Below, piece after piece: positions 1,288-58,797 of a stretch of 64,000 bases of DNA. Each line of letters starts with the position of its first letter. Position 1 is the stretch's first letter. The notes beneath the pieces were generated by a model. The model saw nothing but the letters and a program-made list of their open reading frames with translations, ran no database searches and had not been told where the DNA came from. The stretch is from the NCBI GenBank assembly GCA_902388365.1, contig CABMPB010000002.1:242683-306682 (forward strand), given 5' to 3'. This DNA comes from an uncultured Bacteroides sp. Lineage in GTDB: Bacteria > Bacteroidota > Bacteroidia > Bacteroidales > Bacteroidaceae. A program made the translations under genes and the position numbers.

Positions 1288-1347
1288 GAGTGTGTTCGGG
1301 CGGGCAACCCCCGCCCCTACGACATAAATTCTAGCTTTGACACACTC
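1288..1347. repeat. Half-copy of the dispersed GTAGGGGCGG palindromic element (REP/MITE-like hairpin)
   Basis: GGAGTGTG..TTCGGGCGGGCAACCCCCGCCCCTAC..AAATTCTAGCTTTGACACACTC. The hairpin GGGCGGG/CCCGCCC and the outer GAGTGTG/CACACTC inverted repeat match, in reverse orientation, the left half of the element at 49528-49669. It lies between convergent genes. Confidence 0.55.
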
Positions 1348-4941: not shown

Positions 4942-5651
4942 AGCGAAACCTCCTGCATATAGTCCAGATAAATGCGTTCAATGTCTTCGTTTAGAAATTC
5001 TTCGCGGCGGCGGAGCATTACCAGGCGGCCTTCTTTCATAATGCCGATGCGATCGGCCACAGTGCGGGCACGAAACAGGTCGTGGGTGCAGAGCAGGATG
5101 GATTTTCCTCTTTGTTTCAGTTGCAGCAGAATGTCCATCAGTTCGGCGGCGCTTTTGGGATCGAGCCCGGTAGTCGGTTCATCCATCAGGATATTCGATG
5201 TGTCTTTTTGAAGTACACAGGCCAGTCCTACTTTTTGCCGCATTCCTTTGGAGAAGTGCTTCACCCGCTTTTCAAAATCCGTTTCTTTCAGTCCCACTGT
5301 CCGCATCAGGTTATAAAGTTCGTCTTTGCCGGGATGTTTCCCATCCAGATGTGAAAAGAATTCCAGGTTTTCGCGTGCGGACAGGTCGCCATAAAGCATT
5401 ACGTTTTCGGATATATAAGAGATAAGCCGTTTGGTTTCCAAAGATTGTTTCACGCTGTCCAGTCCGTCTATCAGGGCTTGTCCCGAAGTGGGACGGATGA
5501 AGTTGAGGAACAGGTTGAGTGTGGTGGTCTTTCCGGCTCCGTTTGCTCCCAGCAGGAAGAAGATTTCTCCTTCCTCTATTTTGAGATTCAGTGCATCAAG
5601 TGCCAGTCTGCCGTCATCATATCTTTTGGTTAAATCAATGGCTTGCAACAT
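4938..5651 (-). CDS. ABC transporter ATP-binding protein
   Basis: Walker A GANGAGKTT, a signature region and Walker B ILMDEPTTGLD are present. The track ORF extends to 5765, but the start is placed at the internal ATG (MLQAIDLTKRY) at 5649-5651. A TAtcTTTG -7 box lies about 27 nt upstream of it on the minus strand. Confidence 0.85.
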   Translation of the reverse strand: MLQAIDLTKRYDDGRLALDALNLKIEEGEIFFLLGANGAGKTTTLNLFLNFIRPTSGQALIDGLDSVKQSLETKRLISYISENVMLYGDLSARENLEFFSHLDGKHPGKDELYNLMRTVGLKETDFEKRVKHFSKGMRQKVGLACVLQKDTSNILMDEPTTGLDPKSAAELMDILLQLKQRGKSILLCTHDLFRARTVADRIGIMKEGRLVMLRRREEFLNEDIERIYLDYMQEVSL

Positions 5652-5756: not shown

Positions 5757-5845
5757 GCTCCCCACGGTTATGGGGAGCGCAGCCCACGGCTATGGAGAGC
5801 GCTCCCCATAGCCGTGAGGAGCGCTCCTCATAGCTATGAAACGGT
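5757..5845. repeat. Array of four ~22-bp units forming nested palindromes (GCTCCCCACGGTTATGGGGAGCGC / AGCCCACGGCTATGGAGAGCGC / TCCCCATAGCCGTGAGGAGCGC / TCCTCATAGCTATGAAACGG)
   Basis: Read directly from the sequence. Unit 1 is a self-hairpin (GCTCCCCA..TGGGGAGC). Units 2 and 3 form a 17/18-bp palindrome centred on AGCGCT. The array lies just downstream (minus strand) of the TonB receptor stop. Confidence 0.6.
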
Positions 5846-12533: not shown

Positions 12534-15500
12534 ATGTTAAAACGACTGAAATCTGTCAGTATGTTATTATTCCTTGGAAGTTTATTCTCGGGAACAATCT
12601 CTACAATTATGGCTTCCGGAGTAAACTCCTCAGCCATTGTACAACAAACGGAAACATGTAAAGGTGTGGTCAAGGACGCTACAGGCGAGTCCGTTATTGG
12701 TGCTTCAGTAGTTGTAAAAGGTACAACAAACGGAACGATCACCGACTTCGATGGTAATTTTAGCCTTGATGGAGTGAAAAAGGGAGATATGATCATAATC
12801 TCTTATGTGGGCTATCAAACTCAAGAAATTAAATGGAATGGCGGTTCACTGAATGTTATTTTGAAAGAAGATTCAAAAACATTGAGCGAAGTTGTCGTAG
12901 TAGGTTATGGTACACAGAAAAAAGTAAACCTCTCGGGTTCTGTGGCTATGGTGGATAGTAAAGAATTGGAGAATCGTCCTATTCAGAACGTATCCAGCGG
13001 TTTGCAAGGTTTGATGCCGGGTGTTACTATTACAGGAACCAATGGTGCGCCGGGACAGGATGCCGGTAAAATCCGTGTTCGTGGTATCGGTACTTTGAAT
13101 GAGGCCGGTCCGTATATCTTAGTGGATGGAATAGAAACCGGTACTTTGAGTGCTGTCGATCCCAATGATATTGAAAGTATTTCTGTGTTGAAAGATGCCG
13201 CTTCTGCCGCAATCTACGGTTCTAAAGCTGCCAATGGTGTTGTTTTGATTACAACAAAGCGTGGTAAGACTGGAGAAACAAAAGTATCATATAGCGGCTA
13301 TTTGAGTTTCCAGAACGCAACGAATATGATTGAGCGTATGGGTTCTTATGAATATGCTTCCCTGTTGAATAAGGCATTGGAAGCAGAAGGTATGGCAAAA
13401 CGCTTCGATGATACCGAGCTGCAAAAGTTCAAAGCCGGAAATGATCCGCTTTATCCGGACACGGATTGGTATGACCTGGCCTATAAGACCGGTGTTCAGC
13501 ATCGCCATAATATCAATATCAACGGCGGTTCCGAAAATGTGAAGTATATGGCTTCATTGGGTTATCTGAATCAGACCGGTATTTTGCCGAATGCAGGCCG
13601 TGAACAATTCAATGCCCGTACAAATCTGGATATGAAGATCAATGAACGTTTAAGTGCGCGCATGAACTTATCTTATATTAAGAATCAGTATAGCGATGCC
13701 AGTTCTGCCTATGCCGGCGGTAGTTCGGATCAGATTATCCGCCAGTTAAATTTGATTGCTCCCTGGATTGTTGCCCGGTATGACGATGGTACCTGGGGAA
13801 CTATTTCGGATGGTAGCCCCATTGCCTGGTTGGATTCGGGCATGAAGGTAAACCGCGACAATTATAACTTTTCGGGAATGGCTGCCGTGGATTATAAAAT
13901 CATGGATGGTTTGAAACTGACTTTGCAGGGTGCATATGTAAACAATTTGCAGAACTACAGTTATTTCCAGAAATACATCAAGTATAATGAGAATAAAGAA
14001 TCAGACCCTAACCAATTGGATGAACGTTACTATAAATGGGATCGTACAAACTATGACGCGTTGCTGAATTATGATAAGAGTTTTGGCAAGCATAATATCA
14101 AGGGCTTATTGGGTTGGCACACAGAAAAATACAACTATAAGTATCAGAAAGCCGTGCGTAAGAAATTCCCCAATAATGAATTGACGGATATGAATGCCGG
14201 AGATGCTTCTACTCAAAGCAACGAAGGTTATTCGGCAGAACTGGCAATGATTTCATGGTTTGCCCGTGTCAATTATGATTTTGCAGGCAAGTATCTTTTG
14301 GAAGCCAATATCCGTTCGGATGCTTCTTCTCGTTTTGCAGAAGGTCACCGTTGGGGATATTTCCCTTCATTCTCGGGTGCATGGCGCATCAGTGAAGAAG
14401 CATTTATGGAAGGTGTAAGAGATAGCTGGTTGTCAAGCTTGAAGATTCGCGCTTCCTGGGGGCAGTTAGGTAATCAGGATGCATTAAGTGGTACCAATAA
14501 TGACTATTATCCGGCATTGAATACTTATAATCTGGATTCTAAATATGCATTCGGAGGTTCTTTGAATTCCGGTTATTATCAGCGGAAATACCGTTTGGAA
14601 ACCATCTCATGGGAAAAGGCATCTACTTGGGGTATCGGTGTTGACTTTACTTTATTCAACAAGTTGAATGGTTCTATTGATTATTATAATCGTAAGACTA
14701 CCGACATCATTATGGATGTAACGGTTCCTGAAGAATTTGCATTGGATGCTTACAAGGACAATGTAGGCTCTATGAGAAATAGTGGTGTAGAAATAAACTT
14801 GAGCTACAATACCCAAATAGGTCAGGTTGACTTTGGAATCGCAGGTAATTTCTCTTATAATAAGAACAAGATCCTTGATTTGGGAGGCGGTGATCCTGAT
14901 AAATACCTGGATGCTTCGGGTGGTTACAATCAGCGTAATAAAGTAGGTGAAGCTATGAACTCATACTTTATTTATAGAGCAGACGGTTTCTTCAATTCTC
15001 AGGAAGAAGCAGATGCTTATACCGAAAAATATGGTAATCCTTTCGGCAAGAAGTTTAAAGCCGGTGACTTGCGTTATGTAGATACAAACAAAGATGGTAA
15101 GCTGACGGCTGAAGACCGTGAATATTGTGGTAGCTCGGATCCTAAGATTACTTATGGTTTCAATATTAATGCAGGCTGGAAAGGTTTTGACCTGTCATTG
15201 ATGTTTAATGGTGCTGCCGGTGTAAAGAGATTGTTTGACGGATATGAAGTTTATGGTAACTTCTCGGGTGATGCTGCCCATCCGTCTACTATATGGAGAG
15301 ATGCTTGGACACCCGAGAATCATAATGCTTCCATGCCGCGTATTTTCTATGATACAAATTCTCCCAGTAGCAGCCGTTCCGTGCAATCTGATTTCTGGTT
15401 GCAGAATACAAGCTACTTGCGCCTCAAGAACCTGCAGTTAGGATATACATTACCAAAGAAGTGGTTGAATGCCGTCGGTGTTGATAATATCCGCATTTAC

Positions 15501-22469: not shown

Positions 22470-22650
22470 GCGGTGGAATGCTTCCGGTTTCACACCGCGA
22501 AACACCTCGTAACACACCGCGATATTTTATTTTCGCGGTGTGTTACGGAGCTTTTCTCGGTGTCTTATTAACCGTGAAAAACAATGGCGGTTGTTTTCAA
22601 AAACAATGGTCATTGTTTTTGCATTGAATCATTTGGGGCTGGGAATGAAT
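22470..22650. repeat. ~170-bp multi-hairpin intergenic repeat element, copy 1
   Basis: It contains the hairpins GGTTTCACACCGCGAAACACC, CGTAACACACCGCGA..TCGCGGTGTGTTACG and the perfect palindrome AAAACAATGGCCATTGTTTT (variant AATGGTCATT). Its reverse complement aligns at about 80% identity with 53747-53925. Confidence 0.6.
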
Positions 22651-22659
22651 AGCGTTGCC

Positions 22660-22754
22660 GTCCACCGTAGGGGCAGATTGAATCTGCCCGATAACATCCC
22701 AATGGTATATCTGTGGATGCATTCGGGCGGATTCAATCCGCCCCTACGGTGGAC
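22660..22754. repeat. GTAGGGGC double-hairpin palindromic element, copy at the tricorn protease 3' end
   Basis: GTCCACCGTAGGGGCAGATTGAATCTGCCC...GGGCGGATTCAATCCGCCCCTACGGTGGAC. Each arm is itself a hairpin. It lies 40 bp downstream of the protease stop on the minus strand. Confidence 0.6.
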
Positions 22755-22796
22755 GGCTTACCTTAAACAATTAATTCAAAACCATTTCGACATGCT

Positions 22797-27965: not shown

Positions 27966-30900
27966 ATGAGAAAAAACTTTTCCAAAAATCACAGGGGGCA
28001 TTGGATTCCTCTTGTTTTGGTGGCTTCATTTCTGTTATGGGGAAATGTGGCTATGGCTGCGCTGTCTATTCAGGAGGCAAAATTTTCTATGCGGCAAAAT
28101 TCTATCTCTTTAAACCAGGTTTTTCATGAAATTGAGAAACAGACGGGCTACTCCTTTTTAGTACGTAATAATGATATCAATATCAACGAAAAGGTTTCTA
28201 TTGATGTCCGGAATAAAAGTGTGGAGGAGGTATTGGAAATCTTATTTGCAGGAAAGAATATCCGTTACAAGGTAGAGGGAGAACGTATTTCTGTTTATAA
28301 GCCTCAGCAAGCAAGACAAAGCACTATTACAGGATTGGTTCTGGATGCTGCCAAAGAACCGATTATTGGTGCATCTGTTGTAGTAATAGGATCTACTAAC
28401 GGATGTATTACAGACTTTGATGGAAAATTCTCTTTAGAGGTTTCCGAACTTCCGGTGAAACTGCAAATCAGCTATATCGGTTACAAGTCTCAAGAAGTAA
28501 CGGTAAATGATACGAAGACCATTCAGGTGGTGATGCGTGAGGATACCGAAACATTGGACGAAGTAGTGGTAGTAGGTTATGGTTCACAGAAAAAGGCAAA
28601 CTTGACCGGTGCTGTCGCTTCCGTAAAAATGGACGAAGTAATTGGTAACCGTCCCTTATCACAAGCTGCCGATGCATTGCAGGGTACAGTTCCCGGCTTG
28701 TTTGTTTCAAGTGACGGTAATGCTCCCGGTAAGAGTAAATCATTTCAAATTCGTGGTGCCTATTCTGTAGGTATCAAGAATGATGACGGTTCTTATGGTA
28801 GTGCCATCAAGCCTTTGATTTTGATTGACAATGTGGAAGGAGACCTGGATATGGTTAATCCTGAGGATATTGAAACGGTTACAGTGCTGAAAGATGCCGC
28901 TTCGGCTGCCATTTATGGTGCCCGTGCTGCCGGTGGTGTAATTTTGGTTACTACCAAACGTCCGAAAGGAGAAACTTCTTTCCAACTGAATTATAATAAT
29001 AACTTTGCCTTTGCAACCGCCATGAATTTGCCAGAACAAGCACCGTTGATGGAATATTTGCAGGCCTATTCTGATGCTGCCGGAGATCAATTCTGGACAA
29101 TGGGTTCACCCAGTGTAAGCAAATGGATGGGATATTTGGAGCAATATCGTAATAATCCGTCTTCTATTCCTACTGTCGGCGATGGTATCTTTAAAGATAC
29201 GGATGGGGCTGTTTATTATATGAATGAAAAGGACTTGGTGAAGAACATGCTTGAGACCAGTTTCCAGCATACTCATAATATATCAATGACAGGTAGTACT
29301 GATAAGCTCCGCTATCGTCTTTCTGCCGGATTTATTGATAATGACGGTGTGCTGATTACTGACAAGGATAAATACAGACGAATGAATGTCAGTGGATTTA
29401 TATCCGCCAATGTTACAAAATGGTTTACTCAGGAAGCTACTTTCAGCTATGCACATAGTAAAAGAATGGAGCCAAAGTCTGCTTTGGGCGCTGTTTACAG
29501 TACCCGTCTTGCTTCTTTCTATCCGGAAGGCAATATGCCGGAAGGTATTTCTGCTGCAGGCGATGGGTTGCCTTTCTTTACTCCGTCCAATCAGATACGT
29601 TGGTCCAATCCGGCTAAAACTTTGTATGATAATCCGCGTATTTTCTTGAAGTCTATATTGAAGCCTTTGAAAGGCCTTGAAATAGCATTCGAATATACAT
29701 TCGACAAGAATATATATGATTATAACTGGTACACAGGAAGTGTAGCATATACAACTGTTCAAGGTGGTAAAGATACTACTCCTACAAGTGACTATTTGCA
29801 GAAAACAAAAAGATATACTGATTATAATTCCATTAACTTATATGGTACCTATGATTTTGCATTAGGAGATCATAAGTTTAAAGTAATGGCAGGTTTCAAC
29901 CAGGAGTCAAGCTACCGGGAAACAATGGAAGCTTATTCTTATGGACAGGCTGTAATTGAGGTTCCCTCATTAGGTTCAGGTACTTCTACTTTGAAAGCCA
30001 CTGATAAATACAATGAATTTTCTGTTCGCGGCGGATTCTTCCGTGTGAATTACAACTATCAGGATAAATATTTGCTGGAAGTAAACGGACGCTATGACGG
30101 TTCTTCTAAGTTTCCTAAAGAATCACGTTACGGTTTCTTCCCCTCTGTTTCGGCCGGTTGGAACATTGCACAGGAAAAATTCATGGAAAGTACTCAGAAT
30201 TGGTTAGGTTCTTTGAAGCTACGCGCTTCTTATGGTATGATTGGTAACCAGAACGTGCCTGCTTATTCGTTTATTCCGACTATGACGGTGAATAATAAAT
30301 ACAATGGTTGGATATCCAATGGTAATTATGTAACCGCTATTACTTCTATTCCTTCATTGGTAAGTCGCAACTTTACTTGGGAAAAGGTAGGAACATTAGA
30401 CATCGGTATTGATTTCTCTATGTTCAGTAATCGCTTCACAGGTACTTTTGACTGGTATCAGCGTAATACGAACGGCATGCTTGCTCCGGGTGTACAATTG
30501 CCTGCTGTGGTGGGTGCGGATGCTCCTTATCAGAATACGGCAGATATGCGTACACGTGGTTGGGAACTGAGCTTTAATTGGCGCGATCAGATTGGAAAGG
30601 TTGGTTATCGCGTTGGTTTCAACCTGTCTGATAGTAAGTCAAAGATTGTGAAGTATGATAGTAATTCATCTTATTTATTGAGCAGTGAGCGTACCAATGC
30701 ACAGACTGGTGGAAAATATACATTCTGGGAGTTTTATAAAGGTAAGGAATTAGGCGAAATCTGGGGATATGAAACAGATGGTTATTATACCGTAGACGAT
30801 TTTGTCGATACTTCTTCATGGAAATTAAAGGATGGTGTTCCAAGCATAGATGGCTATAATCCTCGTCCGGGTGATGTGAAGTTCAAGAACTTAATGGATG

Positions 30901-47873: not shown

Positions 47874-48068
47874 GGCTAGAGTATTTAAGGTATAATTGAA
47901 ACAAAAATACACCTTTCGTTTTTCATCTGCAAATAAAATGGGAACGTTTGCAGATTTTGGGAACGATTGCGGGAACGTTTGCAGGCGAATCCCTTTAAAT
48001 TTCTTCGTTTTTCTTTTTTCCGCCTTCTATATTTGTGGCATAAATCAACAATTTAAAACCATAAAATC

Positions 48069-49514
48069 ATGAAAACACAAGTTATTTCTTTCGATTACAA
48101 TCGTGAACAAGTAAAAGCAGGTATCGTACACATTGGCGTTGGTAATTTCCATCGTGCACACGAGGAGTATTACACTAATCTGTTACTGGCTGATGCCACC
48201 CAGCAGAATTGGGGAATTTGCGGCGTAATGTTGCTGCCGTCTGATGAACATCTGTACAAGGCATTGAAAAAGCAGAACGGTGAATATACCTTGACCGTTT
48301 GCGGGCGTGACGGTAAGGATGAGGCTTATCGCATCGGTTCACTGGTAGAACTGATTTGGGGCCTTGAAAATCCTTCTGCTGTTATAAATAAGATAGCAGA
48401 TAAGGAAATCAGGATTATCACTCTGACCATCACAGAGGGCGGATACAATCAGGACAAGACTACCGGTGAGTTTGATCTTCAGAATGAAATGATACAGCAT
48501 GACATAATCAATCCGCAGGCTCCCAAAACTGTATTCGGTTTTGTGGCAGAAGGCTTGCGTGAACGTATGCAGAGAGGAAACGGTCCTGTCACCATCCTTT
48601 CTTGCGACAACCTTCAACACAATGGAAATACGGCAAAGCGCTCTTTTACCGCCTTTATCAAAGCGCAAGATCAGGAACTGGCTGCATGGGTGGCACAGAA
48701 TGTTACTTTCCCCAACAGCATGGTAGACCGCATTACTCCGGCTACTACTCCTGCTGACATAGAACGGCTGAATGCAAAGAACGACACTGAAGATCAAGCC
48801 CCTGTATATTGTGAAGACTTTATTCAATGGGTGATAGAAGATAATTTCATTGCCGACCGTCCGGCATGGGAAAAGGCCGGTGCGGAGTTTACCAACGATG
48901 TAACTGCTTACGAAAATATGAAGTTGAGCCTTCTGAACGCTTCTCATACCCTCCTATCCTATCCTGCTTTCCTCAGTGGTTACCGAAAGGTGGACGAAGC
49001 GATGCATGATGAACGTTTTGCTCGGTTGCTCCGTACCTTTATGGATAAGGATATTACTCCGTATGTTCCTGCTCCGGGAAATACTGATTTGGAATTGTAT
49101 AAGCAGACGTTGATTGAGCGTTTTGGAAATCGTTCTGTCAGTGACCAGTTGGCACGTCTTTGTTTTGACGGGGTATCCAAATATCCGGTATATGTAATGC
49201 CCAACCTGATTCGGATGATTCGTGACCATGCAGATCTGACCCGTGTAGCTTTCTCTATTGCCGCTTATCGTCATTATCTGAAATATAAAGTGGATGATAA
49301 AGGAATGGCTTATGAAGTGAGTGATCCTTGGTTGACGGATGGAGATAAGCAACTTATAGCCAGCAGTGAACCGATGGACTTCTTAGCACTTTCGCCTTTC
49401 CGGAGCACAGATCTGAAAGCTGCAGAGAACTTTGTAAAAGTTTACTTGCAGATGGTGAAAGATATAAAAGAAAAAGGTATCTTGCCGGTGCTGGAAATGA
49501 TTCTTGCTAAATAA
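48069..49514 (+). CDS. Mannitol-dehydrogenase-family oxidoreductase (likely fructuronate/tagaturonate reductase, UxuB/UxaB-like)
   Basis: 481 aa with an N-terminal Rossmann fold (GIVHIGVGNFHRAH) and the C-terminal domain of long-chain mannitol dehydrogenases. Confidence 0.8.
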   Translation: MKTQVISFDYNREQVKAGIVHIGVGNFHRAHEEYYTNLLLADATQQNWGICGVMLLPSDEHLYKALKKQNGEYTLTVCGRDGKDEAYRIGSLVELIWGLENPSAVINKIADKEIRIITLTITEGGYNQDKTTGEFDLQNEMIQHDIINPQAPKTVFGFVAEGLRERMQRGNGPVTILSCDNLQHNGNTAKRSFTAFIKAQDQELAAWVAQNVTFPNSMVDRITPATTPADIERLNAKNDTEDQAPVYCEDFIQWVIEDNFIADRPAWEKAGAEFTNDVTAYENMKLSLLNASHTLLSYPAFLSGYRKVDEAMHDERFARLLRTFMDKDITPYVPAPGNTDLELYKQTLIERFGNRSVSDQLARLCFDGVSKYPVYVMPNLIRMIRDHADLTRVAFSIAAYRHYLKYKVDDKGMAYEVSDPWLTDGDKQLIASSEPMDFLALSPFRSTDLKAAENFVKVYLQMVKDIKEKGILPVLEMILAK

Positions 49515-49527
49515 ATGCATTCGAGAG

Positions 49528-49669
49528 GTGTGTCAAAACTAGAATTTACTATCATTTTGTTGTAGGGGCGGGGTTTGCCCGCCCGAAAATAGTTCGCTTT
49601 GTGTATTCGGGCAGGCAAACCCTGCCCCTACCAGTGAACATTTGATAGTTGCTCCAGAGTTTTGACACA
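49528..49669. repeat. GTAGGGGCGG double-hairpin palindromic element, full copy
   Basis: Outer inverted repeat GTGTCAAAACT...AGTTTTGACAC enclosing the hairpins GTAGGGGCGGGGTTTGCCCGCCC and GGGCAGGCAAACCCTGCCCCTAC. It lies 14 bp after the stop of the upstream reductase and overlaps the 5' end of the MFS track ORF. Confidence 0.65.
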
Positions 49670-49715
49670 ACCTCCTACCGTAAAACCTTTATTAAATCAA
49701 CTAATAAGCTATGCC

Positions 49716-50993
49716 ATGAATACACAGAAGACCAATAGCTTGGGACCTTTTTTAGTCCTGACCTTCATTTATTTCATTGTCGGATTTCTGACTACTGTGA
49801 ACGGACAGTGCCAGGGACCGCTGAAAATAGCCTTTCTGGCCCATACGGATGAACTGAGGAATACATTTACTACGCTTATTTCCTTCTTTTTCTTCCTGGG
49901 ATATTTGCTAAACAGTACTTTGGGAGGTAAATGGATAAACAACTACGGTTATAAGAAAACCTTGATACGTGCTCTTATCGTTATGGTATCCGGTCTGCTT
50001 ACTTATTTCCTATCTTCCTGGTTTGCCGTAAATTATGGTGACCTCAGTCTGCAAATCGCATCGGATAGCGTGCCCTACGGTTTCTTTATCTTTCTGCTTG
50101 GTTCTTATCTGATGGGAACTTCGGCAGCCTTGTTGCAGGTGGTGATTAATCCTTATATAGCTGCTTATGAATTGCCTAGGACACAACCGGTGCAGCGCAT
50201 GAATATTGTCTGTGCCATCAACTCCATTGGCACAACTATCGCTCCTTTCTTTGTGACGGGAGTCATGTTTTCCGGAGTTTCATTGGATAATGTACGTGCC
50301 GGACAGTTGATGGTTCCTTTTATGGCAATTGCCATCTGTGTAGCAGTGATCACCATTGTTACCGGACGGCTCCGTTTGCCTGATATTCAAGGGACAAGGA
50401 CGGAACAAGGTGAAAAACTGGAACGTAGCATTTGGTCGTTCCGTCATCTGGCTTTAGGAGTAGTAGCCATTTTCTTTTATGTGGGTGCAGAAGTATCTAT
50501 CGGCGTAAATGTCAATCTGCATGCCATGGAATTGGATCGTGAAGGGGAAATGCTCTCTCCCGCCCTGCTTGCTACCCTTTATTGGGGAGGACTGATGGTG
50601 GGGAGAATCATTTCAGGATTATTCAACAAGGTTTCTCCACGCATGCAACTCACGTTTACCACCTCTGTGGCGACGGTGTTGACTCTCATCGCCATCTTTA
50701 CCAACAATTTATGGGTGCTGGTATCTGTCGGGTTATGCCATTCGGTGATGTGGGGATGTATCTTTACCCTGGCTATAAAAGGATTGAAGAAATATACCTC
50801 AAAAGCATCGGGCATCTTTATGATGGGTGTATTCGGCGGTGCCGTATTTCCGGTGCTGCAAGGCATGATGGCCGATGTATTGGGTTCCTGGCAATGGACA
50901 TGGATGATTGTGGTGGTTTGTGAATTGGTAATGCTTTACTATGCTCTGTGGGGCTCAAAGATAAAAGATGAAGAATGTTTAACTGAAAATTAA
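49716..50993 (+). CDS. MFS sugar transporter (FucP/GlcP-like)
   Basis: The start is placed at ATG 49716 (MNTQKTNSLGPFLVL); the track ORF begins at 49662. 12 TM helices with MFS loop motifs. Confidence 0.85.
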   Translation: MNTQKTNSLGPFLVLTFIYFIVGFLTTVNGQCQGPLKIAFLAHTDELRNTFTTLISFFFFLGYLLNSTLGGKWINNYGYKKTLIRALIVMVSGLLTYFLSSWFAVNYGDLSLQIASDSVPYGFFIFLLGSYLMGTSAALLQVVINPYIAAYELPRTQPVQRMNIVCAINSIGTTIAPFFVTGVMFSGVSLDNVRAGQLMVPFMAIAICVAVITIVTGRLRLPDIQGTRTEQGEKLERSIWSFRHLALGVVAIFFYVGAEVSIGVNVNLHAMELDREGEMLSPALLATLYWGGLMVGRIISGLFNKVSPRMQLTFTTSVATVLTLIAIFTNNLWVLVSVGLCHSVMWGCIFTLAIKGLKKYTSKASGIFMMGVFGGAVFPVLQGMMADVLGSWQWTWMIVVVCELVMLYYALWGSKIKDEECLTEN

Positions 50994-51006
50994 AAGATAG
51001 AATAAT

Positions 51007-51402
51007 ATGAATATCAGAAAGAATATCACGGGAGTGCAACATATCGGTATCCCGACAAATGATGTGGAGAAAACAATTGAATTTTATGTAGGCTTGGGTT
51101 TTGAAATTGCATTGTTTACGCTGAATGAAGCGGCAAATGAGAAAGTTGCCTTCCTCCGTTTAGGCAATTTGATGATCGAAACCTATGAAAATAAGGCTGC
51201 TGCAATGAAGAACGGTGCTATTGACCATATTGCATTGGATGTAAAAGAGATAGATAAGGTGTTTCAGGAGGTTCGTTCTGCCGGTTACCGCATGTTGGAT
51301 CATGCCGTGCAATCGCTTCCCTTTTGGGATCATGGAGTGAAGTTCTTCACTATTGTAGGACCGAATGAAGAAAAGATTGAGTTTTGTGAGAAACTGTCAT
51401 AG
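51007..51402 (+). CDS. VOC-family (glyoxalase/bleomycin-resistance fold) protein
   Basis: 131 aa with the glyoxalase-like metal-binding pattern (HIGIPTND..., DHIALDV). Confidence 0.75.
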   Translation: MNIRKNITGVQHIGIPTNDVEKTIEFYVGLGFEIALFTLNEAANEKVAFLRLGNLMIETYENKAAAMKNGAIDHIALDVKEIDKVFQEVRSAGYRMLDHAVQSLPFWDHGVKFFTIVGPNEEKIEFCEKLS

Positions 51403-51487
51403 CTGATTTTTAGGTAAAGAAATCTTCGGCCAAGCACACAGCTTGACCGAAGATTGTCGATATTTAAAAGAATTTAAAGAAGAAGAC

Positions 51488-52980
51488 TTATTTATATTCT
51501 GCCCAGTCTATCAATCGCATATCGCCTTTCTTTGCCAGTGTGTCGTGCATTGCCAATGCAGCAGACATGCAGTGAGGAGTCTGTCCTTTAGAAGACATCT
51601 TCACGTAATCCCACAGGATATTCTTGTAATCCGGGTGAGCACAGTTCTCGATGATGGCGCGTGCGCGTTCTACCGGGCTCTTTCCGCGGAGGTCGGCAAT
51701 ACCTTGTTCTGTGATGATGATATTTACATCATGCTCTGTGTGGTCGGCATGAGAAACCATAGGAACAATGGCACTGATCTTTCCTTCCTTGGCAACGGAC
51801 GGGCAAGTAAAGATAGAAATATAAGCATTGCGGGTGAAGTCGCCTGAACCGCCGATGCCGTTCATCATCTTCGTGCCGCTGATATGGGTTGAGTTCACAT
51901 TACCATAAATATCTGCTTCAATAGCTGTATTCATGGAGATAACTCCGAGGCGGCGAACAATTTCGGGGCTGTTTGAAAGCTCGGAAGGACGCATCACCAG
52001 TTTATCACGGAAGAAATCAATGTCATCATAGATACCCTGCAAGCATTCATTGGTTACGGTCAGCGAACAAGTACTTCCGAATTTCACACGTCCCTGGCGA
52101 ATCAGGTCTACCACTGCATCTTGCAATACTTCGGTGTACATTTCGAATGCAGGGATGGTTTTGTTACGTCCCAAGGCACCCAATACGGCATTGGCAATAT
52201 TACCTACTCCACTCTGCAAAGGCAGGAAGGTAGATGGAATGATGCCGCGGTCCATATCGGCAACCAGGAAGTCGGCTACATTTTGTCCGATTTGGTCGGT
52301 GATAGGATCGGGTGCGGTGAATGAGCGTGCCTGGTCGGGCATGTTCACTTCTACTACGCCGATAATCTTTTTCGGGTCTACCTGCACATAGGGCACACCG
52401 ATGCGGTCGCTGGGTTTATAGATAGGGATCTCGCGGCGGTAAGGCGGATCAAGTGGTTCATATACGTCATGCAAGCCCATACCGTTTTTACTGTGGGCGG
52501 CGTTCAGTTCTATAATCACTTTGTCTGCCAGGCGGGCGATGGTCGGGGCGATACCTCCGGCTGCTGTCAAGTATACTTTGCCGTCGGGAGTAATCTCGCA
52601 GGCTTCCAGAATGGCAACGTTTACTTTTCCCATAAAGCCATAGCGCACTTCCTGTGCCATTTGCGACAAATGGATGTCATTGTATGCTATTTCGCCATTG
52701 TTCACCGCTTTGCGGAAATCGGGGTTGGTGGTGTAAGGAGCACGATAGCGGATTGCTTTCACTCTTGACAGAATACCGTCTGTAGCGTCTCCTGTAGAGG
52801 CACCGGTAAAGATACCGATTTGGAACGGATTGCCTTTAGCATGTTCTTCTTCTGCTATCTTTGCAATCTCGGGAGTTACGGCTTTCGGCGTTCCTGCCGG
52901 AGTAAAGCCACTGAGTCCAATATTGTAGCCATGCTTGATATAGCTGGCTGCTTCGGCTGCTGAAATAATATTAAATCCCA
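51488..52980 (-). CDS. Acetyl-CoA hydrolase/transferase family protein (succinyl-CoA:acetate CoA-transferase, Cat1/ASCT-like)
   Basis: About 497 aa with family-typical N-terminal (GYNIGLSGFTPAGTPK) and C-terminal (GIGGSGDFTRNA) motifs. The track start is TTG at 52990; ATG at 52980 is preferred. Confidence 0.85.
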
Positions 52981-53018
52981 TAATATTCAATGTGTTATTC
53001 TTATTTAGATAGTTGTTA

Positions 53019-53369
53019 TTAATATTTGCGATTGAAAATCTCCGAATAAATAAAGGCCCGTCGCGCTTCTTCTCTTGTGCTTAGTTTTATGGGGGCATGA
53101 CTTGGCTTCTTGTTTTCTTTTTCCGGCTGGGGGGAGATGTTTTGTTTCGTGGTGACTGTAGGCTGGCTCTGCTTGCGGGAAGATTTAGGCTTACGCATCA
53201 TTTGTGGAACGGGAGAAACGGGTTGCTCCTCTCCTTCTATTTCAGGAAACATATCTGCAAGTACGTCTTTGGGGGAAGTTACTTTCTCCTTTTTACTGGC
53301 TTTTAAGATTTGCTGTGCAATGGCAACGGCAATAATTACTATAAATATGATAACCTGAATGATCTCCAT
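53019..53369 (-). CDS. Hypothetical small membrane-anchored, Lys/Pro-rich protein
   Basis: The start is placed at ATG 53367-53369 (MEIIQVIIFIVIIAVAIAQQIL, a TM); the track ORF extends to 53399. It has a disordered basic tail and lies 28 bp upstream of the CoA-transferase gene. Confidence 0.45.
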   Translation of the reverse strand: MEIIQVIIFIVIIAVAIAQQILKASKKEKVTSPKDVLADMFPEIEGEEQPVSPVPQMMRKPKSSRKQSQPTVTTKQNISPQPEKENKKPSHAPIKLSTREEARRAFIYSEIFNRKY

Positions 53370-53746
53370 ATTCTTTCCTTTTATATAATGAGTGCTCAAA
53401 GTTAGGAATTTATTTCTTAATTCGGGCTATAAAAGGACAATAAAAAAGGAAGAGAACTTCACAGTTGTCTTCCCCTATTTTTTTAACCTAAACCTTAACT
53501 ATGAAAAAATCTAATGTTTTTCAGAAGCAAATATGCGAATTAATATGATACGTTGGTAACGTAAACGGTTTTTTTGTTCACGGTTTATAATTATTTAACT
53601 CTTTGCGCTGTTTATGGGGCATTTATAGCATCATATTACCTGTTGTGGTCTAAATTCCTTCAAAAGCTTCATGGGCTTATAACATTTTGTTTATGAGTGT
53701 CTTATCATGAAGAAATATTTTGTGATTCCTTCATAAATGATCAATA

Positions 53747-53925
53747 ATGATTCAAAGCAAAAACACCCGCCATTGTTTTTGGAAACACCCGCCGTTGTTT
53801 GGGAAAACAATGGCCATTGTTTTTCGCGGTCCATAAGACACCGGGAAGTGCTTCGTAACACACCGGGAAACTACAGTATCGCGGTGTGTTACGGAGTGTT
53901 TCCTGGTGTGAAACCGAAGGTATCT
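53747..53925. repeat. ~170-bp multi-hairpin intergenic repeat element, copy 2 (inverted relative to copy 1)
   Basis: AAACAATGGCCATTGTTTTT palindrome units, CGTAACACACCGGG..CGCGGTGTGTTACGG hairpin and GGTGTGAAACC. It is about 80% identical to the reverse complement of 22470-22650. Confidence 0.6.
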
Positions 53926-53957
53926 CACCGAGGTACAGACCGGACAAAACACCTGCA

Positions 53958-54030
53958 TCTTACTAACGATGAGGCCGAAAGATTACTAATGACGAGGGCG
54001 AGTCATTACTAATGATACGGCTTACCCATT
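53958..54030 (+). repeat. About 3.3 tandem copies of a 23-bp direct repeat (CTTACTAACGATGAGGCCGAAAG / ATTACTAATGACGAGGGCGAGTC / ATTACTAATGATACGGCTTACCC / ATTACTGA...)
   Basis: Read directly from the sequence. It lies 75-150 bp upstream of the AraC-family gene start. Confidence 0.55.
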
Positions 54031-54104
54031 ACTGATCCATTTATGAAGGAATTGGAATATATTTGTTCATGATAACTATCTTATAATCAAATTGTTATTG
54101 GCAA

Positions 54105-55049
54105 ATGACGGATTTGAAGGAAAATACATGGACTGAAGATATTCTTGTGCACCCATTATTGACTATCTTTGCAAAAAGTATGATTATGAATTCCATCCCC
54201 CGGTATAAATTTTATAAAACGAAGTATGGTGAGGAGCTTTTGATAGATGTAGTAACCTTGGACAGCATTCGCCCTTATATCAATAAGACTCCGGTGCACA
54301 CCTTGTCTTATTTTGATATCACCTTTATAACCGGTGGCTCCGGACATTTATCCATTGCCGATGAACAGTTTTCCCTTTGCCAAGGGGATATTATATTTTC
54401 CAGACCCGGAGAAATACGGGCGTGGAATGCAGAGAACCTTCCGCAAGGCTATGCGCTTATCTTTGAAGAAGAATTCCTGCTCTCATTCTTTAACGACCCT
54501 TCTTTTATACAAAACCTTTCTTACTTTAACAGAGATAGAGCTTCTGCCAGACTGAACATTACAAATATATATTCCCGAATTGAAAGTCTGATCCGGAATA
54601 TTATATCCGAAATAAACAACGAGCACTCCAGGGACAAACATATTTTGCGTGCCTTGCTGTATGAGATGCTGATGCTTCTCAACCGCGAATATTCAAAAAG
54701 CTACAACGCCATCGAAGGAAAATCTTCAAATAGATATATAGATCATTTTATCAAATTAGTCGATCGGGATTTCAGAACCCATCATGACACTGCATACTAT
54801 GCCAATGAACTATGTATCACCCCCAACTATCTGAATGAACTAGTCCAGAAAACAATGAATACCAGCCCTAAAAGCTATATTCAGAATAGAATAATCCAAG
54901 AAGCAAAAACATTGCTGGCTTATACCAGCCTGTCCGTATCCGAGGTGGCAGACAGACTGAGTTTTGAAAACCCTTCATACTTTATACGGTTATTCCGCCG
55001 GCAGATCCGGTTGACCCCTTTGCAATATCGGCATAGCATCATTCGTTGA
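54105..55049 (+). CDS. AraC-family transcriptional regulator
   Basis: 314 aa with an N-terminal cupin-like sensing domain and C-terminal dual HTH AraC signatures (YYANELCITPNYLNELVQK; SVSEVADRLSFENPSYFIRLFRR). Confidence 0.9.
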   Translation: MTDLKENTWTEDILVHPLLTIFAKSMIMNSIPRYKFYKTKYGEELLIDVVTLDSIRPYINKTPVHTLSYFDITFITGGSGHLSIADEQFSLCQGDIIFSRPGEIRAWNAENLPQGYALIFEEEFLLSFFNDPSFIQNLSYFNRDRASARLNITNIYSRIESLIRNIISEINNEHSRDKHILRALLYEMLMLLNREYSKSYNAIEGKSSNRYIDHFIKLVDRDFRTHHDTAYYANELCITPNYLNELVQKTMNTSPKSYIQNRIIQEAKTLLAYTSLSVSEVADRLSFENPSYFIRLFRRQIRLTPLQYRHSIIR

Positions 55050-55134
55050 AAAGTGCTATTTCTCCTTTGATTTTTATTGCATGGTTTTTCTTTCGTCTTC
55101 TTACTTTTGCATCATCATTTAAACCAAAAAGATT

Positions 55135-55554
55135 ATGAGAAACGTAGAACAAACGATTGGAAAACTGATTGATAATCAGAAAGTAGCTTTTATAGCTTCC
55201 ATTGACGAAGAAGGCTTTCCGAATATGAAAGCAATGTTGCAACCACGAAAGAGGGAAGGGCTCCGCACTTTTTATTTCACCACCAATACCTCTTCCATGC
55301 GTGTGCAGCAATATCTGAGGAACAATCATGCCTGTATTTACTTTTGCGACAGGCGTTTCTTCAGAGGTGCCATGCTGAAAGGAACCATGGAGGTGATGAC
55401 AGACCCTGCGTACAAGGAAATGATATGGGAGGAAGGCGACACGATGTATTATAAAGAAGGAGTTACCGACCTGGACTATTGTGTGCTGAAATTCACGGCA
55501 ATTTGCGGAAGATATTACAGCAGCTTTAAATCGGAGAACTTCGCAGTGGAGTGA
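55135..55554 (+). CDS. Pyridoxamine 5'-phosphate oxidase-like FMN-binding split-barrel protein (general stress protein 26 family)
   Basis: 139 aa with the PNPOx-like fold pattern (FIASIDEEGFPNMKAM...FYFTTNTSS). Confidence 0.7.
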   Translation: MRNVEQTIGKLIDNQKVAFIASIDEEGFPNMKAMLQPRKREGLRTFYFTTNTSSMRVQQYLRNNHACIYFCDRRFFRGAMLKGTMEVMTDPAYKEMIWEEGDTMYYKEGVTDLDYCVLKFTAICGRYYSSFKSENFAVE

Positions 55555-55649
55555 AAGAAAGCAAGTTTTGACAATTTCCAACCTCTTTATTCGTTTCATT
55601 TGCGGGGAAGTCCCTATCTTTGCAGCGAAATAAATAAATCAAAGGAAAT

Positions 55650-57026
55650 ATGAAAGAAACAACAGGAGCAGACTTTAAATCTGCAACTGAAACCGAAAAC
55701 AAGAAATTGTTTATCGAAACCTACGGCTGCCAGATGAATGTGGCTGATAGTGAAGTAATTGCATCTATTATGCAGATGGCAGGCTACCGGGTGTGCGAAA
55801 CGCTGGACGAAGCGGATGCCGTGTTTATGAACACTTGTTCCATCCGTGACAATGCGGAGCAGAAGATTCTGAACCGATTGGAGTTTTTCCATTCCATGAA
55901 GAAGAACAAGCGCAGGGACTTGATAGTGGGCGTACTGGGCTGTATGGCGGAACGCGTGAAGGATGATTTGATAGAGAATCATCATGTAGACCTTGTGGTG
56001 GGGCCGGACGCTTACCTCACTTTACCCGATTTGGTTGCTTCGGTAGAGGCAGGAGAGAAGGCTATCAATGTGGAGCTTTCCACCACCGAGACTTATCGTG
56101 AGGTGATTCCGTCGCGCATTTGTGGCAACCACATTTCCGGCTTTGTCAGCATCATGCGTGGCTGCAACAATTTCTGCCACTATTGCATCGTGCCTTATAC
56201 TCGCGGACGGGAGCGTAGCCGTGATGTGGAGAGCATCCTGAATGAGGTGCGCGACCTGGCAGGCAGGGGCTACAAGGAAGTGACCTTGCTGGGACAGAAT
56301 GTAAACTCCTATCGTTTTGAAAAGGAGGGAGAAGTGATAACTTTCCCTATGTTGCTGCGCACAGTGGCGGAAGCGGTGCCGGGCATGCGTGTCCGTTTTA
56401 CAACTTCGCACCCCAAGGATATGAGCGACGAGACGTTGCAAGTGATTGCGGAAGTGCCCAATGTGTGCAAGCATATTCACCTACCGGTGCAGAGTGGCAG
56501 TTCACGAATCTTGAAACTGATGAACCGCAAATATACCCGCGAATGGTATCTGGAGAGGGTAGCGGCCATCCGCCGGATTATTCCGGATTGCGGGTTGAGT
56601 ACCGATATATTTTCGGGCTATCATTCGGAGACGGAAGAGGATCATCAGGAATCTTTGTCCCTGATGCGTGAATGTGGGTATGATTCCGCCTTTATGTTCA
56701 AGTACTCGGAACGTCCCGGGACGTATGCTTCCAAGCATTTGCCGGATGATGTGCCCGAAGAAATTAAGATCCGCCGTTTGAATGAGATTATTGAATTGCA
56801 GAACCAACTGTCTGCCGAAAGCAATGCCAAGGATGTGGGAAAAACATTCGAGGTAATGGTAGAAGGGGTTTCCAAGCGTTCAAAAGAACAGTTATTCGGA
56901 CGTACACAGCAAAATAAGGTGGTAGTCTTTGATAGAGGCAATCATCGCATTGGCGATTTTGTGAATGTGCGTATCACCGAGGCCAGTTCAGCCACGCTGA
57001 AAGGTGAGGAAGTAATTGCACCGTAG
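55650..57026 (+). CDS. miaB: tRNA-2-methylthio-N6-dimethylallyladenosine synthase (radical SAM methylthiotransferase)
   Basis: 458 aa with an MTTase N-domain (LFIETYGCQMNVADSE), a radical SAM CxxxCxxC (MRGCNNFCHYC) and a TRAM domain. Confidence 0.93.
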   Translation: MKETTGADFKSATETENKKLFIETYGCQMNVADSEVIASIMQMAGYRVCETLDEADAVFMNTCSIRDNAEQKILNRLEFFHSMKKNKRRDLIVGVLGCMAERVKDDLIENHHVDLVVGPDAYLTLPDLVASVEAGEKAINVELSTTETYREVIPSRICGNHISGFVSIMRGCNNFCHYCIVPYTRGRERSRDVESILNEVRDLAGRGYKEVTLLGQNVNSYRFEKEGEVITFPMLLRTVAEAVPGMRVRFTTSHPKDMSDETLQVIAEVPNVCKHIHLPVQSGSSRILKLMNRKYTREWYLERVAAIRRIIPDCGLSTDIFSGYHSETEEDHQESLSLMRECGYDSAFMFKYSERPGTYASKHLPDDVPEEIKIRRLNEIIELQNQLSAESNAKDVGKTFEVMVEGVSKRSKEQLFGRTQQNKVVVFDRGNHRIGDFVNVRITEASSATLKGEEVIAP

Positions 57027-57103
57027 GGGCGGATTGAATCCGCCCGAATACACCCCAAATACCCCCTTCGGATTGTTGTCGGGCAGATTCAATCTGCCCC
57101 TAC
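57023..57103. repeat. GTAGGGGCGG double-hairpin palindromic element, 81-nt copy overlapping the miaB stop codon
   Basis: GTAGGGGCGGATTGAATCCGCCC...GGGCAGATTCAATCTGCCCCTAC. The 7-bp terminal stem GTAGGGG/CCCCTAC encloses two stem-loops with 7-nt loops. The TAG stop of miaB is the first three bases of the element. Confidence 0.65.
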
Positions 57104-57152
57104 AGTAGATGAAAGCGTTATTTGTTCCTTAGTTTCGCAATTATGGAATTTA

Positions 57153-57563
57153 TTGAAAAATATGGGAAAGAAAGAAGAATATAAAGAAAAGAACTTGCAA
57201 TATCTGCAGGTTCTTTCTACACAGGAAGGCATTCATCCATTGCCTTGCGGAATCTATTATAAAGTATTGCAAGCAGGAGAGGGTAGTGTCACCCCTACAG
57301 TCCGTAGCATCGTAACCGTGCACTATAAAGGCAGCCTGATAAACGGGAAAGAGTTCGATAACTCCTACACCCGCAACTGTCCCGAAGCTTTCCGCCTGTG
57401 TGATGTCATCGAAGGATGGCAATTAGCCCTCCAACGTATGCACGTGGGCGACAAATGGACTATTTACATTCCTTATACCATGGGATACGGCAACCGTGCC
57501 AGCGGTCCGATTCCCGCTTTTTCTACATTGATATTCGAAGTAGAATTATTAGGCATTGCATAA
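57153..57563 (+). CDS. FKBP-type peptidyl-prolyl cis-trans isomerase
   Basis: 136 aa with the FKBP core (VHYKGSLINGKEFDNSY..., IEGWQLALQRMHVGDKW, LIFEVELL). Confidence 0.88.
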   Translation: MKNMGKKEEYKEKNLQYLQVLSTQEGIHPLPCGIYYKVLQAGEGSVTPTVRSIVTVHYKGSLINGKEFDNSYTRNCPEAFRLCDVIEGWQLALQRMHVGDKWTIYIPYTMGYGNRASGPIPAFSTLIFEVELLGIA

Positions 57564-57571
57564 CCGTTCTG

Positions 57572-57763
57572 CTACCTCTTCTCCGGCATTACAATCCATA
57601 AAATAAGATAAACGATGACACCGGAGAAAGCGGTGAAAAACGTTGCCAATGTATAAACTACACGTACTATTGTTACGTCCCAACCGAAATAATCAGCCAA
57701 GCCCGCACATACTCCCGCTACCATCTTGTTGCTGCTGGAACGGGTTAATTTTTTATTCTCCAT
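57572..57763 (-). CDS. PspC-domain small membrane protein
   Basis: 63 aa with the PspC motif (LTRSSSNKMVAGVCAGLADYFGWDVTIVRVV) followed by a TM. Confidence 0.8.
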   Translation of the reverse strand: MENKKLTRSSSNKMVAGVCAGLADYFGWDVTIVRVVYTLATFFTAFSGVIVYLILWIVMPEKR

Positions 57764-57870
57764 ATCCGTTTCTTTTTAAATGATCTGTGCAAATGTAGAA
57801 AAAGTAAAAACGAATGATTAACATATACTCTTAAAAGTACTTAAAGGATAGCCCTTATAATACTTTTTAT

Positions 57871-58797
57871 TTGTTATTTTGCAGCAAATTAGGGCAAAAA
57901 GTGGATATACTCAATATAAATACTTGTCCGTTGTGCGGCGGAAAACATTTGGGACATGCAATCACTTGTACGGATCACTATGCTACGGGCGAACAATTCA
58001 GTTTGGTTCGCTGTGAGGGTTGTGGCTTTATCTTTACGCAGGGTGCACCCGTGGAAGCCGAGATAGGACGGTATTATGAAACTCCCGATTACATATCGCA
58101 TAGCGACACCCACAAGGGGTTGATGAACCGCGTGTATCACGAGGTTCGCAAGTATATGCTGTCGCGCAAGGCAAAGCTGATAAAACGTACTTCGGGACTG
58201 AGTAAAGGCAGTCTGCTGGACATTGGTACAGGTACGGGCTATTTCAGCAATGCGATGAAAGAACGTGGCTGGCGGGTGAAAGCCATTGAGAAGAACGCTA
58301 AGGCGCGTGCGTTTGCCAAAGAACATTTTGAGCTGGACGTGGATGCCGAAGATGCTTTGGCGGGATATGATGATGCTTCTTTTGACGTTATCACGTTGTG
58401 GCACGTCATGGAGCATTTGGAACATCTGAATGAAACATGGGAAAAGCTCAGTGCGCTGCTGAAAGATAGGGGAGTGCTGATTGTCGCCGTTCCCAACGCA
58501 AGTTCGTATGATGCACAGAAATACAAGGAATGGTGGGCAGCATATGATGTTCCCCGTCATTTGTGGCATTTTACGCCCTCCGCGATGCAGCAATTCGGAG
58601 TGAAGCATGGTTTTAAACTGGCAGAACAGCATCCCATGCCCTTTGATGCATTCTATGTATCCATGCTGACGGAAAAATACAAAGGCAGCCGTTGGGCTTT
58701 CTTGAAAGGAATGTGGACGGGACTATTGGCATGGTTCAGTTCGCTGGCAAAGGAAGAACGCAGTAGTTCAATGATTTATGTATTCAGAAAGAAGTGA
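57871..58797 (+). CDS. Class I SAM-dependent methyltransferase with an N-terminal Cys4 zinc-ribbon
   Basis: CPLCGG...CEGCGF zinc ribbon and SAM motif I (LLDIGTGTGYF). The track start is TTG at 57871; the true start is uncertain (GTG at 57901 is possible). Confidence 0.75.
   Translation: MLFCSKLGQKVDILNINTCPLCGGKHLGHAITCTDHYATGEQFSLVRCEGCGFIFTQGAPVEAEIGRYYETPDYISHSDTHKGLMNRVYHEVRKYMLSRKAKLIKRTSGLSKGSLLDIGTGTGYFSNAMKERGWRVKAIEKNAKARAFAKEHFELDVDAEDALAGYDDASFDVITLWHVMEHLEHLNETWEKLSALLKDRGVLIVAVPNASSYDAQKYKEWWAAYDVPRHLWHFTPSAMQQFGVKHGFKLAEQHPMPFDAFYVSMLTEKYKGSRWAFLKGMWTGLLAWFSSLAKEERSSSMIYVFRKK

Follow-up and report, generated by a model that had tools for sequence, protein, structure and literature searches.

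Repetitive extragenic palindromic (REP) sequences, and the doublets of them known as REPINs (REP doublets forming hairpins), have been studied closely in Proteobacteria, and little has been described of them in gut Bacteroidaceae. A GTAG directly at the base of a GC-rich hairpin, together with compensatory subfamilies, defines the GTAG class (Nunvar 2010, PMC2817692; Di Nocera 2013, PMC3733652). The repeats analysed here occupy four sites in a 64 kb stretch (referred to as the window) of contig CABMPB010000002.1, recorded as an uncultured Bacteroides sp., and were compared with loci from other genomes, which carry L-numbers (e.g. L141, L150) where they need to be told apart. They are a GTAG-type REP doublet (REPIN) family of Phocaeicola/Bacteroidaceae, within a well-known kind. 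The fuller reading, that they are GTAG-class REPs in head-to-head doublets which act as REPIN-type non-autonomous mobile elements of a Phocaeicola (Bacteroidaceae) chromosome, is given a probability of about 0.72. The current understanding of how REPs and REPINs work is unchanged by these findings, and the details of interest are local, namely allele swapping at fixed boundaries and remodelling of the junction between miaB and an FKBP gene.

REPs are linked to REP-associated tyrosine transposases (RAYTs). The Y1 HUH transposases have been divided into subclasses, and subclass 2.4 TnpA-REP is described as 'abundant in Cyanobacteria and Bacteroidetes' (Quentin 2018, PMC6006769). The canonical REPs of this subclass start with GT[AG]G at the 5' end and have three basal G-C pairs. 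In-frame insertion of REPs within the transposase gene is frequent, and GTAGGGGCGGGTCCTGTGCCCGCCC is given as a cognate REP in Table S1 (PMC6006769). The window repeats resemble the REPs of this subclass (Bertels group 4 RAYT) in the 5' GTAG at a GC-rich hairpin foot, the three bottom G-C pairs, a core as in GTAGGGGCGGGTCCTGTGCCCGCCC and the compensatory stem subfamilies, and the class has been reported in Bacteroidetes and scattered phyla. They differ in that the window units almost always form head-to-head pairs, which have extra outer arms and a spacer that is conserved. A look-up of species codes in the Quentin 2018 table (PMC6006769) gave no entry for Bacteroides or Phocaeicola.

The REPINs of Pseudomonas fluorescens and E. 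coli (PMC3116915) are also intergenic and consist of two inverted REPs and a short spacer which together give one long hairpin; as in the window, the doublet is the repeated unit and singlets resemble decayed halves. However, the RAYTs associated with those REPINs belong to groups 2 and 3, from Proteobacteria, whereas the window family is found in Bacteroidota with a subclass 2.4-type core, and one of its two types (type B, below) is nested in a longer palindrome. The 'HH dimers' of GTAG repeats (Di Nocera 2013, PMC3733652) share with the window family the GTAG stem-loop with a 6-9 bp stem, a preference for head-to-head dimers 20-100 bp apart, G-T pairs and alternative complementary stem residues. 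That work reported GTAG repeats in Proteobacteria, Cyanobacteria, Chloroflexi and the Planctomycetes-Verrucomicrobia-Chlamydiae (PVC) group and only CGTC repeats in Bacteroidetes, and the window family therefore extends the host range reported there.

A further comparison is with 'double-foot' REPs (GTAGAGACAAGGCATGCCTTGTCTCTAC), which flank and invade RAYT genes in Spirosoma, Tannerella and related contigs. These also have GTAG at one end and CTAC at the other, but their stem sequence differs and each forms a perfect palindrome of 28 nt; central deletion of an inverted REP dimer has been noted as a possible origin for REPs of this kind (Quentin 2018, PMC6006769). No paper on this REPIN family in Bacteroides or Phocaeicola was found in a literature search, and a search with the motif string returned nothing relevant.

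The repeat unit and its stem

The repeat unit is a 25-nt GTAG-tagged palindrome, GTAG-GGGCRG-N7-CYGCCC-GA, and seven units are present at the four sites, as three inverted doublets with GTAG outermost and one singlet. Given from the GTAG end, the units begin at 1320 (-), 22667 (+) and 22747 (-), 49562 (+) and 49631 (-), and 57023 (+) and 57103 (-). The exact decamer GTAGGGGCRG occurs seven times in the window. When one mismatch or fewer is allowed there are 11 matches, compared to 3.6 +/- 1.7 in shuffled sequences, and 11 or more were reached in 0/100 shuffles. The features of the four sites are:

57023-57103, plus strand: type A REP doublet (REPIN), from unit searches, alignment and fold
57023-57047, plus strand: REP unit of this doublet, GGGCGG/CCGCCC stem, ATTGAAT loop
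57048-57078: spacer of this doublet, containing a small TTCG hairpin
57079-57103, minus strand: REP unit of this doublet, GGGCAG/CTGCCC stem, ATTGAAT loop
57024-57026: miaB stop codon TAG, bases 2-4 of GTAG
57104-57128, plus strand: right outer arm of this type A element, AGTAGATGAAAGCGTTATTTGTTCC, which fits the family consensus of CTAC followed by RGTGGATGnAAACGyTATT
57014-57161, plus strand: block present in the window lineage between miaB and the FKBP gene which contains the REPIN, from allele comparison
22657-22757, minus strand: type A REP doublet in the opposite orientation, with units at 22667-22691 (plus, CAG arm) and 22723-22747 (minus, CGG arm)
49524-49670, plus strand: type B composite element of 147 nt, with outer inverted repeat GTGTGTCAAAAC (49528-49539) / GTTTTGACACA (49659-49669)
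49562-49586 (plus) and 49607-49631 (minus): REP doublet inside the type B composite, GGTTTGC loops
1288-1347, minus strand: half type B element with a single REP unit at 1296-1320 (GTAG at 1320, GGGTTGC loop)
1321-1343: outer module GTGTCAAAGCTAGAATTTATGTC of the half type B element

The first-pass annotation had reported four copies of a double-hairpin element, and all four carry the repeat. Its sites were right, although the elements reach past GTAG and are therefore longer than it stated, and it had taken the miaB TAG as the first three bases of the element where the stop codon in fact begins one base further in. Its label of 'REP/MITE-like' was correct in kind; the specific class, GTAG REPINs, had gone unrecognised, and this class points to a RAYT mechanism and not to that of classical miniature inverted-repeat transposable elements (MITEs).

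The GTAG directly abuts the stem in 7/7 window units and in all Bacteroidales units, which places GT[AG]G at the hairpin foot throughout, and GTAGGGGC is followed by a hairpin in 38 of its 44 occurrences across the window and 11 Bacteroidales loci. The stem is conserved as a structure. Across 27 distinct units, 91.7% of the cells of the 8-pair stem are paired, compared to 36-54% after shifting the 3' partner by 1-3 columns. Four stem pairs have compensatory double changes, including pair 9-19 (n=8), pair 10-18 (n=4) and pair 11-17 (n=11); the first two of these show zero one-sided changes and the third has two unpaired cells. The covariation score was attained by 0/500 shuffles. Judged on its sequence, the repeat unit is a GTAG-class REP, and the base of its hairpin consists of three G-C pairs.

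Doublet organisation and subfamilies

In the Bacteroidales loci all neighbouring REP pairs (15/15) are head-to-head with GTAG outside, and these pairs take in 30 of the 36 units; other phyla show a mixture of head-to-head, head-to-tail and tail-to-tail arrangements. In the doublets, one arm has a CGG/CCG stem and the other a CAG/CTG stem, and the polarity of the spacer is kept across copies and genera. This fixed polarity of arms and spacer indicates that the whole doublet is the copied unit. The density of copies is four sites per 64 kb in the window, and a single 8-kb locus from another Bacteroidaceae genome has nine units. A tandem REP array, unlike the Bacteroidales head-to-head doublets, was seen in an Oscillospiraceae metagenome-assembled genome (MAG), where L071 has five head-to-tail copies of GTAGGGGCGGCATTCTGCCGCCCGAA at 3493-3657 with an exact 35-nt period.

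Two subfamilies can be distinguished by the centre of the unit. Type A has the centre ATTGAAT (sites 22667 and 57023) and its outer arms are conserved beyond GTAG, with CATCCACC directly before GTAG and GGTGGATG directly after CTAC (also written as CGTTnnCATCCACC and GGTGGATGnnAACG). The palindrome at 22657-22757 accordingly runs 10 bp past GTAG on each side (GCCGTCCACC / GGTGGACGGC), and the 57023 element has no matching left outer arm, as the miaB coding sequence occupies that place. Type B has the centre GGTTTGC or GGGTTGC (sites 49562 and 1320) and is nested in a palindrome of ~147 nt with the ends TGTGTCAAAAC / GTTTTGACACA. These ends are common to the window, two P. faecalis loci, P. massiliensis and the half copy at 1288-1347. 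An outer module, GTGTCAAARCTAGAATTT, had previously been described as common to the 1288 and 49528 copies; it is, and it recurs in Phocaeicola faecalis and P. massiliensis.

Turnover between close relatives

Copies of the repeat are gained, lost or swapped between close relatives. At the miaB-FKBP site a sister lineage (L147-L149) has an empty allele, in which the miaB TGA and the FKBP ATG overlap with zero spacer and MiaB is 456 aa with the C-terminus EEVF. In the window lineage a 148-nt block (57014-57161) with the type A doublet parts the two genes, and MiaB ends in EEVIAP. A third allele is present in L141, a very close genome with an identical FKBP protein and a MiaB ending in EVIAEH. In its spacer (L141 2290-2490) a REP singlet (GTAGGGGCGGGTTCTAACCCCGCC) followed by an unrelated long palindrome (AGCCTCCCCCTTTTTAAGGGGG ... 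CCCCCTTCAAAAGGGGGAGGCT) was observed instead of the doublet, and the miaB-FKBP site appears to be an insertion hot spot for palindromes of several kinds. From these alleles, insertion at miaB would have uncoupled two overlapping genes and provided a new stop codon.

The site between the mannitol dehydrogenase and major facilitator superfamily (MFS) genes differs in another way. In L150/L151 the flanks are 100% identical to the window, and the entire 147-nt block (49524-49670) is swapped for another doublet variant, whose centres are ATTGAAT and AATGCTT and whose outer arms also differ. Furthermore, doublets of the window and of another Bacteroidaceae genome are 92-93% identical, where the sole region of ~1 kb compared for that pair is ~75% identical. 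The earlier suggestion of mobility rather than convergence was right in kind, and the strain comparisons show both presence/absence and allele replacement.

Movement by a different route, as classical MITEs, has to be weighed here. The elements would then be deletion derivatives of an insertion sequence (IS) with a DDE transposase, moved via their terminal inverted repeats, and the GTAG hairpins would be passengers. The type B outer inverted repeat is kept in four loci of three species and in the half copy, and the type A arms are conserved outside GTAG, both of which would suit such elements. However, no target-site duplication is visible at the miaB-FKBP or the mannitol dehydrogenase-MFS site, where the boundaries are defined by comparison; the outer parts are not the same in types A and B, nor from allele to allele; and the GTAG REP core is the sole part common to all variants and genera. 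In addition, no matching IS was noticed in the window, in a search that was not exhaustive. A MITE origin is therefore unlikely. The outer-repeat copy, which the first-pass annotation had likened to a small MITE, does have terminal inverted repeats and lacks a visible target-site duplication.

Under the REPIN reading, the replacement of one doublet by another at fixed flanks and the three allelic states at miaB-FKBP raise the idea that Phocaeicola REPINs are site-specific exchangeable cassettes, with precise RAYT-mediated excision and re-insertion at a preferred target and not recombination between copies. This idea is tentative and rather doubtful. Its enzyme could be a new or divergent Y1 transposase; it could even be provided in trans, or have come from the Clostridia of the gut, in which this REP core is also present. 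If true, it would constitute natural-population evidence for ongoing REPIN transposition in Bacteroidota.

The family has several practical consequences. It breaks metagenome assemblies, and contig L144 terminates within a repeat copy. It represents strain-level structural variation that is usable as markers, and it can rewire operons, as at miaB-FKBP, where it parts the two overlapping genes and gives MiaB another C-terminus and miaB another stop codon.

Folding and possible roles in RNA

Each doublet is an imperfect palindrome which, on either strand, folds into a single long hairpin (-49 to -83 kcal/mol, z -8 to -14). For 57023-57103 as RNA, the single long hairpin has -49.3 kcal/mol, two separate REP hairpins have -27.8 kcal/mol, and a terminal stem enclosing two stem-loops has -17.3 kcal/mol, and this ranking is unchanged under DNA parameters. 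The cloverleaf-like model that had been proposed for this copy, with a 7-bp terminal stem and two stem-loops, is therefore the worst of the three folds in energy. Both strands fold equally well, which is the signature of a DNA palindrome.

The tRNA-like size, the strong fold and the covariation of the stem could also be produced by a structured non-coding RNA gene (a small RNA or tRNA-like gene) in several paralogous copies. ARAGORN, however, predicted 0 genes, which agrees with the earlier statement that the element is not a tRNA, and an Rfam search of the whole window gave 0 matches at gathering score. The two-fold symmetry is perfect, so that neither strand is preferred, the copies have no specific promoter- or terminator-like boundary, and the element is wholly missing at the miaB site of the sister lineage. 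This explanation is very improbable.

Alternatively, the hairpins could be chiefly transcription terminators or stabilisers of mRNA 3' ends, with their repetition due to selection for one good design. E. coli REPs act as 3' UTR (untranslated region) stabilisers. The elements typically lie from -4 to ~150 nt past the upstream stop codon, their RNA folds are very stable, and the CGG arm lies closer to the upstream gene than the other arm does in 8 of 9 informative doublets (judged by eye, with small n), a bias which fits either a transcription-linked or a replication-strand origin. A placement at the 3' ends of four genes had been noted before; it is incomplete as a description, since one of the four window copies lies between convergent genes and the other three between co-directional genes, and these three are therefore also 5' of the next gene. 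In the whole sample all doublets are intergenic, mostly between co-directional genes, with some between convergent genes and one between divergent genes, which does not favour a role at 3' ends.

The intrinsic-terminator idea of the first-pass annotation does not hold. A T-run is absent downstream of all four copies, which are therefore not canonical terminators, and no copy was among the terminator-like sites found by a scan of 48000-58500. The equal folding of both strands, the near-identity of copies in a genome that is otherwise so divergent in the one gene region compared, and the allele swap at fixed flanks, which requires a mechanism at the DNA level, also speak against a primarily transcript-level origin, and as a full account of the repeats this one is improbable. 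A secondary role of the REPINs as an RNA hairpin barrier or stabiliser is plausible by analogy with E. coli REPs. A transcribed doublet would be a very stable hairpin, able to block 3' exonucleases or to insulate neighbouring cistrons, and mRNA stability in Phocaeicola may be influenced by such hairpins in 3' UTRs and between cistrons.

Proposed association with RAYT transposases

A scan with the window motif, using one genome per species, gave at least 116 loci. The matches listed include Clostridia, Poribacteria, Terriglobia, Anaerolineae and Bacteroidales, the last with Phocaeicola, Parabacteroides and Alloprevotella. Real RAYT genes adjoining REPs of the GTAGGGGCG-stem type were found at three loci. 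In L122 the gene (13110-13601) has REP pairs on both sides, and in L124 the gene (2660-3139) has two in-frame REPs and one 3' REP; the REPs of both are of the GTAGGGGCGG...CCGCCC type. The RAYT gene of L126 has two in-frame REPs, GTAGGGGCGATCATTGATCGCCCGAA, of the GTAGGGGCGATC...GATCGCCC type. The GTAGGGGCG REP class is therefore cognate to RAYTs in other organisms. Horizontal transfer from Clostridia was considered and is not supported, as the same REP core is also found in Poribacteria, Terriglobia, Anaerolineae and others, and the sharing is for this reason not gut-specific.

By analogy with REP/RAYT biology, in particular E. coli TnpA-REP (Nunvar 2010; Bertels and Rainey 2011; Quentin 2018), each REP would form its own hairpin in single-stranded DNA, for example at a replication fork. 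A RAYT-family Y1 HUH transposase (subclass 2.4 / group 4) would recognise the hairpin together with the GTAG 'guide', and would cleave and rejoin the DNA, by which the doublet may be excised or copied into new intergenic sites.

Several observations weigh against the REPIN reading. No RAYT gene was detected in the window or in 12 Bacteroidales loci using tblastn and a hidden Markov model (~150 kb of Bacteroidales DNA). The RAYTs that do lie beside GTAGGGGCG-type REPs belong to other or unassigned taxa (Oscillospiraceae in the names of L124 gene homologues; no assigned taxon for L122 and L126), and the RAYT of L107 (Poribacteria), although it has in-frame repeat insertions, carries a REP unlike the window type. 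The Bacteroidota RAYT clade that could be reached (Spirosoma, Fulvitalea, Tannerella) has another cognate REP, the 'double-foot' type, of which there are none in the window. The arms outside GTAG and the extra outer inverted repeat of type B are atypical of minimal REPINs, and the copy counts cover the 64-kb window and the sampled loci. With no RAYT located in the window lineage, the case for mobilisation by a RAYT there draws on the anatomy of the repeats and on the family link.

Other searches for a RAYT were as follows. The E. coli RayT (NC_000913) gave no match as a tblastn query in all fetched loci, and as a database query it returned only Enterobacteriaceae. A RAYT consensus sequence, used purely as a probe, found real RAYT genes in L107 and L058. 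The metagenome pattern of a REP plus YIxxNP gave four loci, two of them with true RAYT genes and neither of these from Bacteroidaceae. In a representative library with 38,590 RAYT-family clusters at 50% identity, the best 150 were uninformative as to taxonomy and no Phocaeicola member could be singled out, and REP-encoded peptides within RAYT proteins gave no Phocaeicola-type match. Scans of viral contigs yielded very few matches and no Bacteroidaceae RAYT. A Bacteroidota RAYT profile was built from Spirosoma, Fulvitalea and one gene on a viral contig, which is flanked by a REP identical to an entry for a Bacteroidetes genome. The profile extends to Tannerella and Salinivirgaceae, which have the 'double-foot' REP.

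Bacteroidota-clade RAYT-like Y1 genes were also observed inside type I restriction-modification operons (L132 4001-4597, L133 4001-4633 and L134 2123-2755). Their position is next to hsdM and hsdS or between the two, with starts and stops that overlap the neighbouring genes, and each has an in-frame 'double-foot' REP.

Neighbouring genes and other repeats

Neighbouring genes were assigned using Pfam. The 57023 site lies between a MiaB-like methylthiotransferase and an FKBP isomerase, the 22667 site between a tricorn-type protease and LeuRS, and the 49562 site between a reductase of the mannitol-dehydrogenase family and an MFS transporter; at the 1288 site a hypothetical gene is convergent with Ham1/RdgB. 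The 22657-22757 doublet is 49 nt 3' of the tricorn protease stop and 447 nt upstream of leuS. Cluster members of the neighbour proteins are named Phocaeicola sp., P. vulgatus or Bacteroidaceae bacterium, which places the window in a Phocaeicola-like Bacteroidaceae genome. In L007, a Bacteroidaceae MAG, two single REP units (4525-4549 and 5042-5066) are inside a long open reading frame (2647-5442), which may be spurious or may be a coding gene with REPs inserted in frame.

A second palindromic repeat family, unrelated to the REPs, is present in the window at 22471-22618 and 53783-53930, with copies of 148 nt that are 80% complementary and contain ACACCGCGAAACACCTCGTAACACACCGCGA... and AAACAATGGCGGTTGTTTT... 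as parts. One copy adjoins the REP doublet at 22660 and the other is upstream of an AraC-type gene, and further pairs of this family are 53655-53739 / 54038-54122 and 22492-22563 / 53838-53909. A cluster of short inverted repeats at 5757-5832 (GCTCCCCACGGTTATGGGGAGCGC / GCGCTCCCCATAGCCGTGAGGAGC), with arms of 24-32 nt that are 84-92% complementary, is likewise unrelated to the REP family. Finally, the stretches 12867-13262 and 28539-28961, also unrelated to the REPs, are paralogous (74-79% identical, ~15.7 kb apart) and look like copies of one gene, possibly outer-membrane receptor genes.

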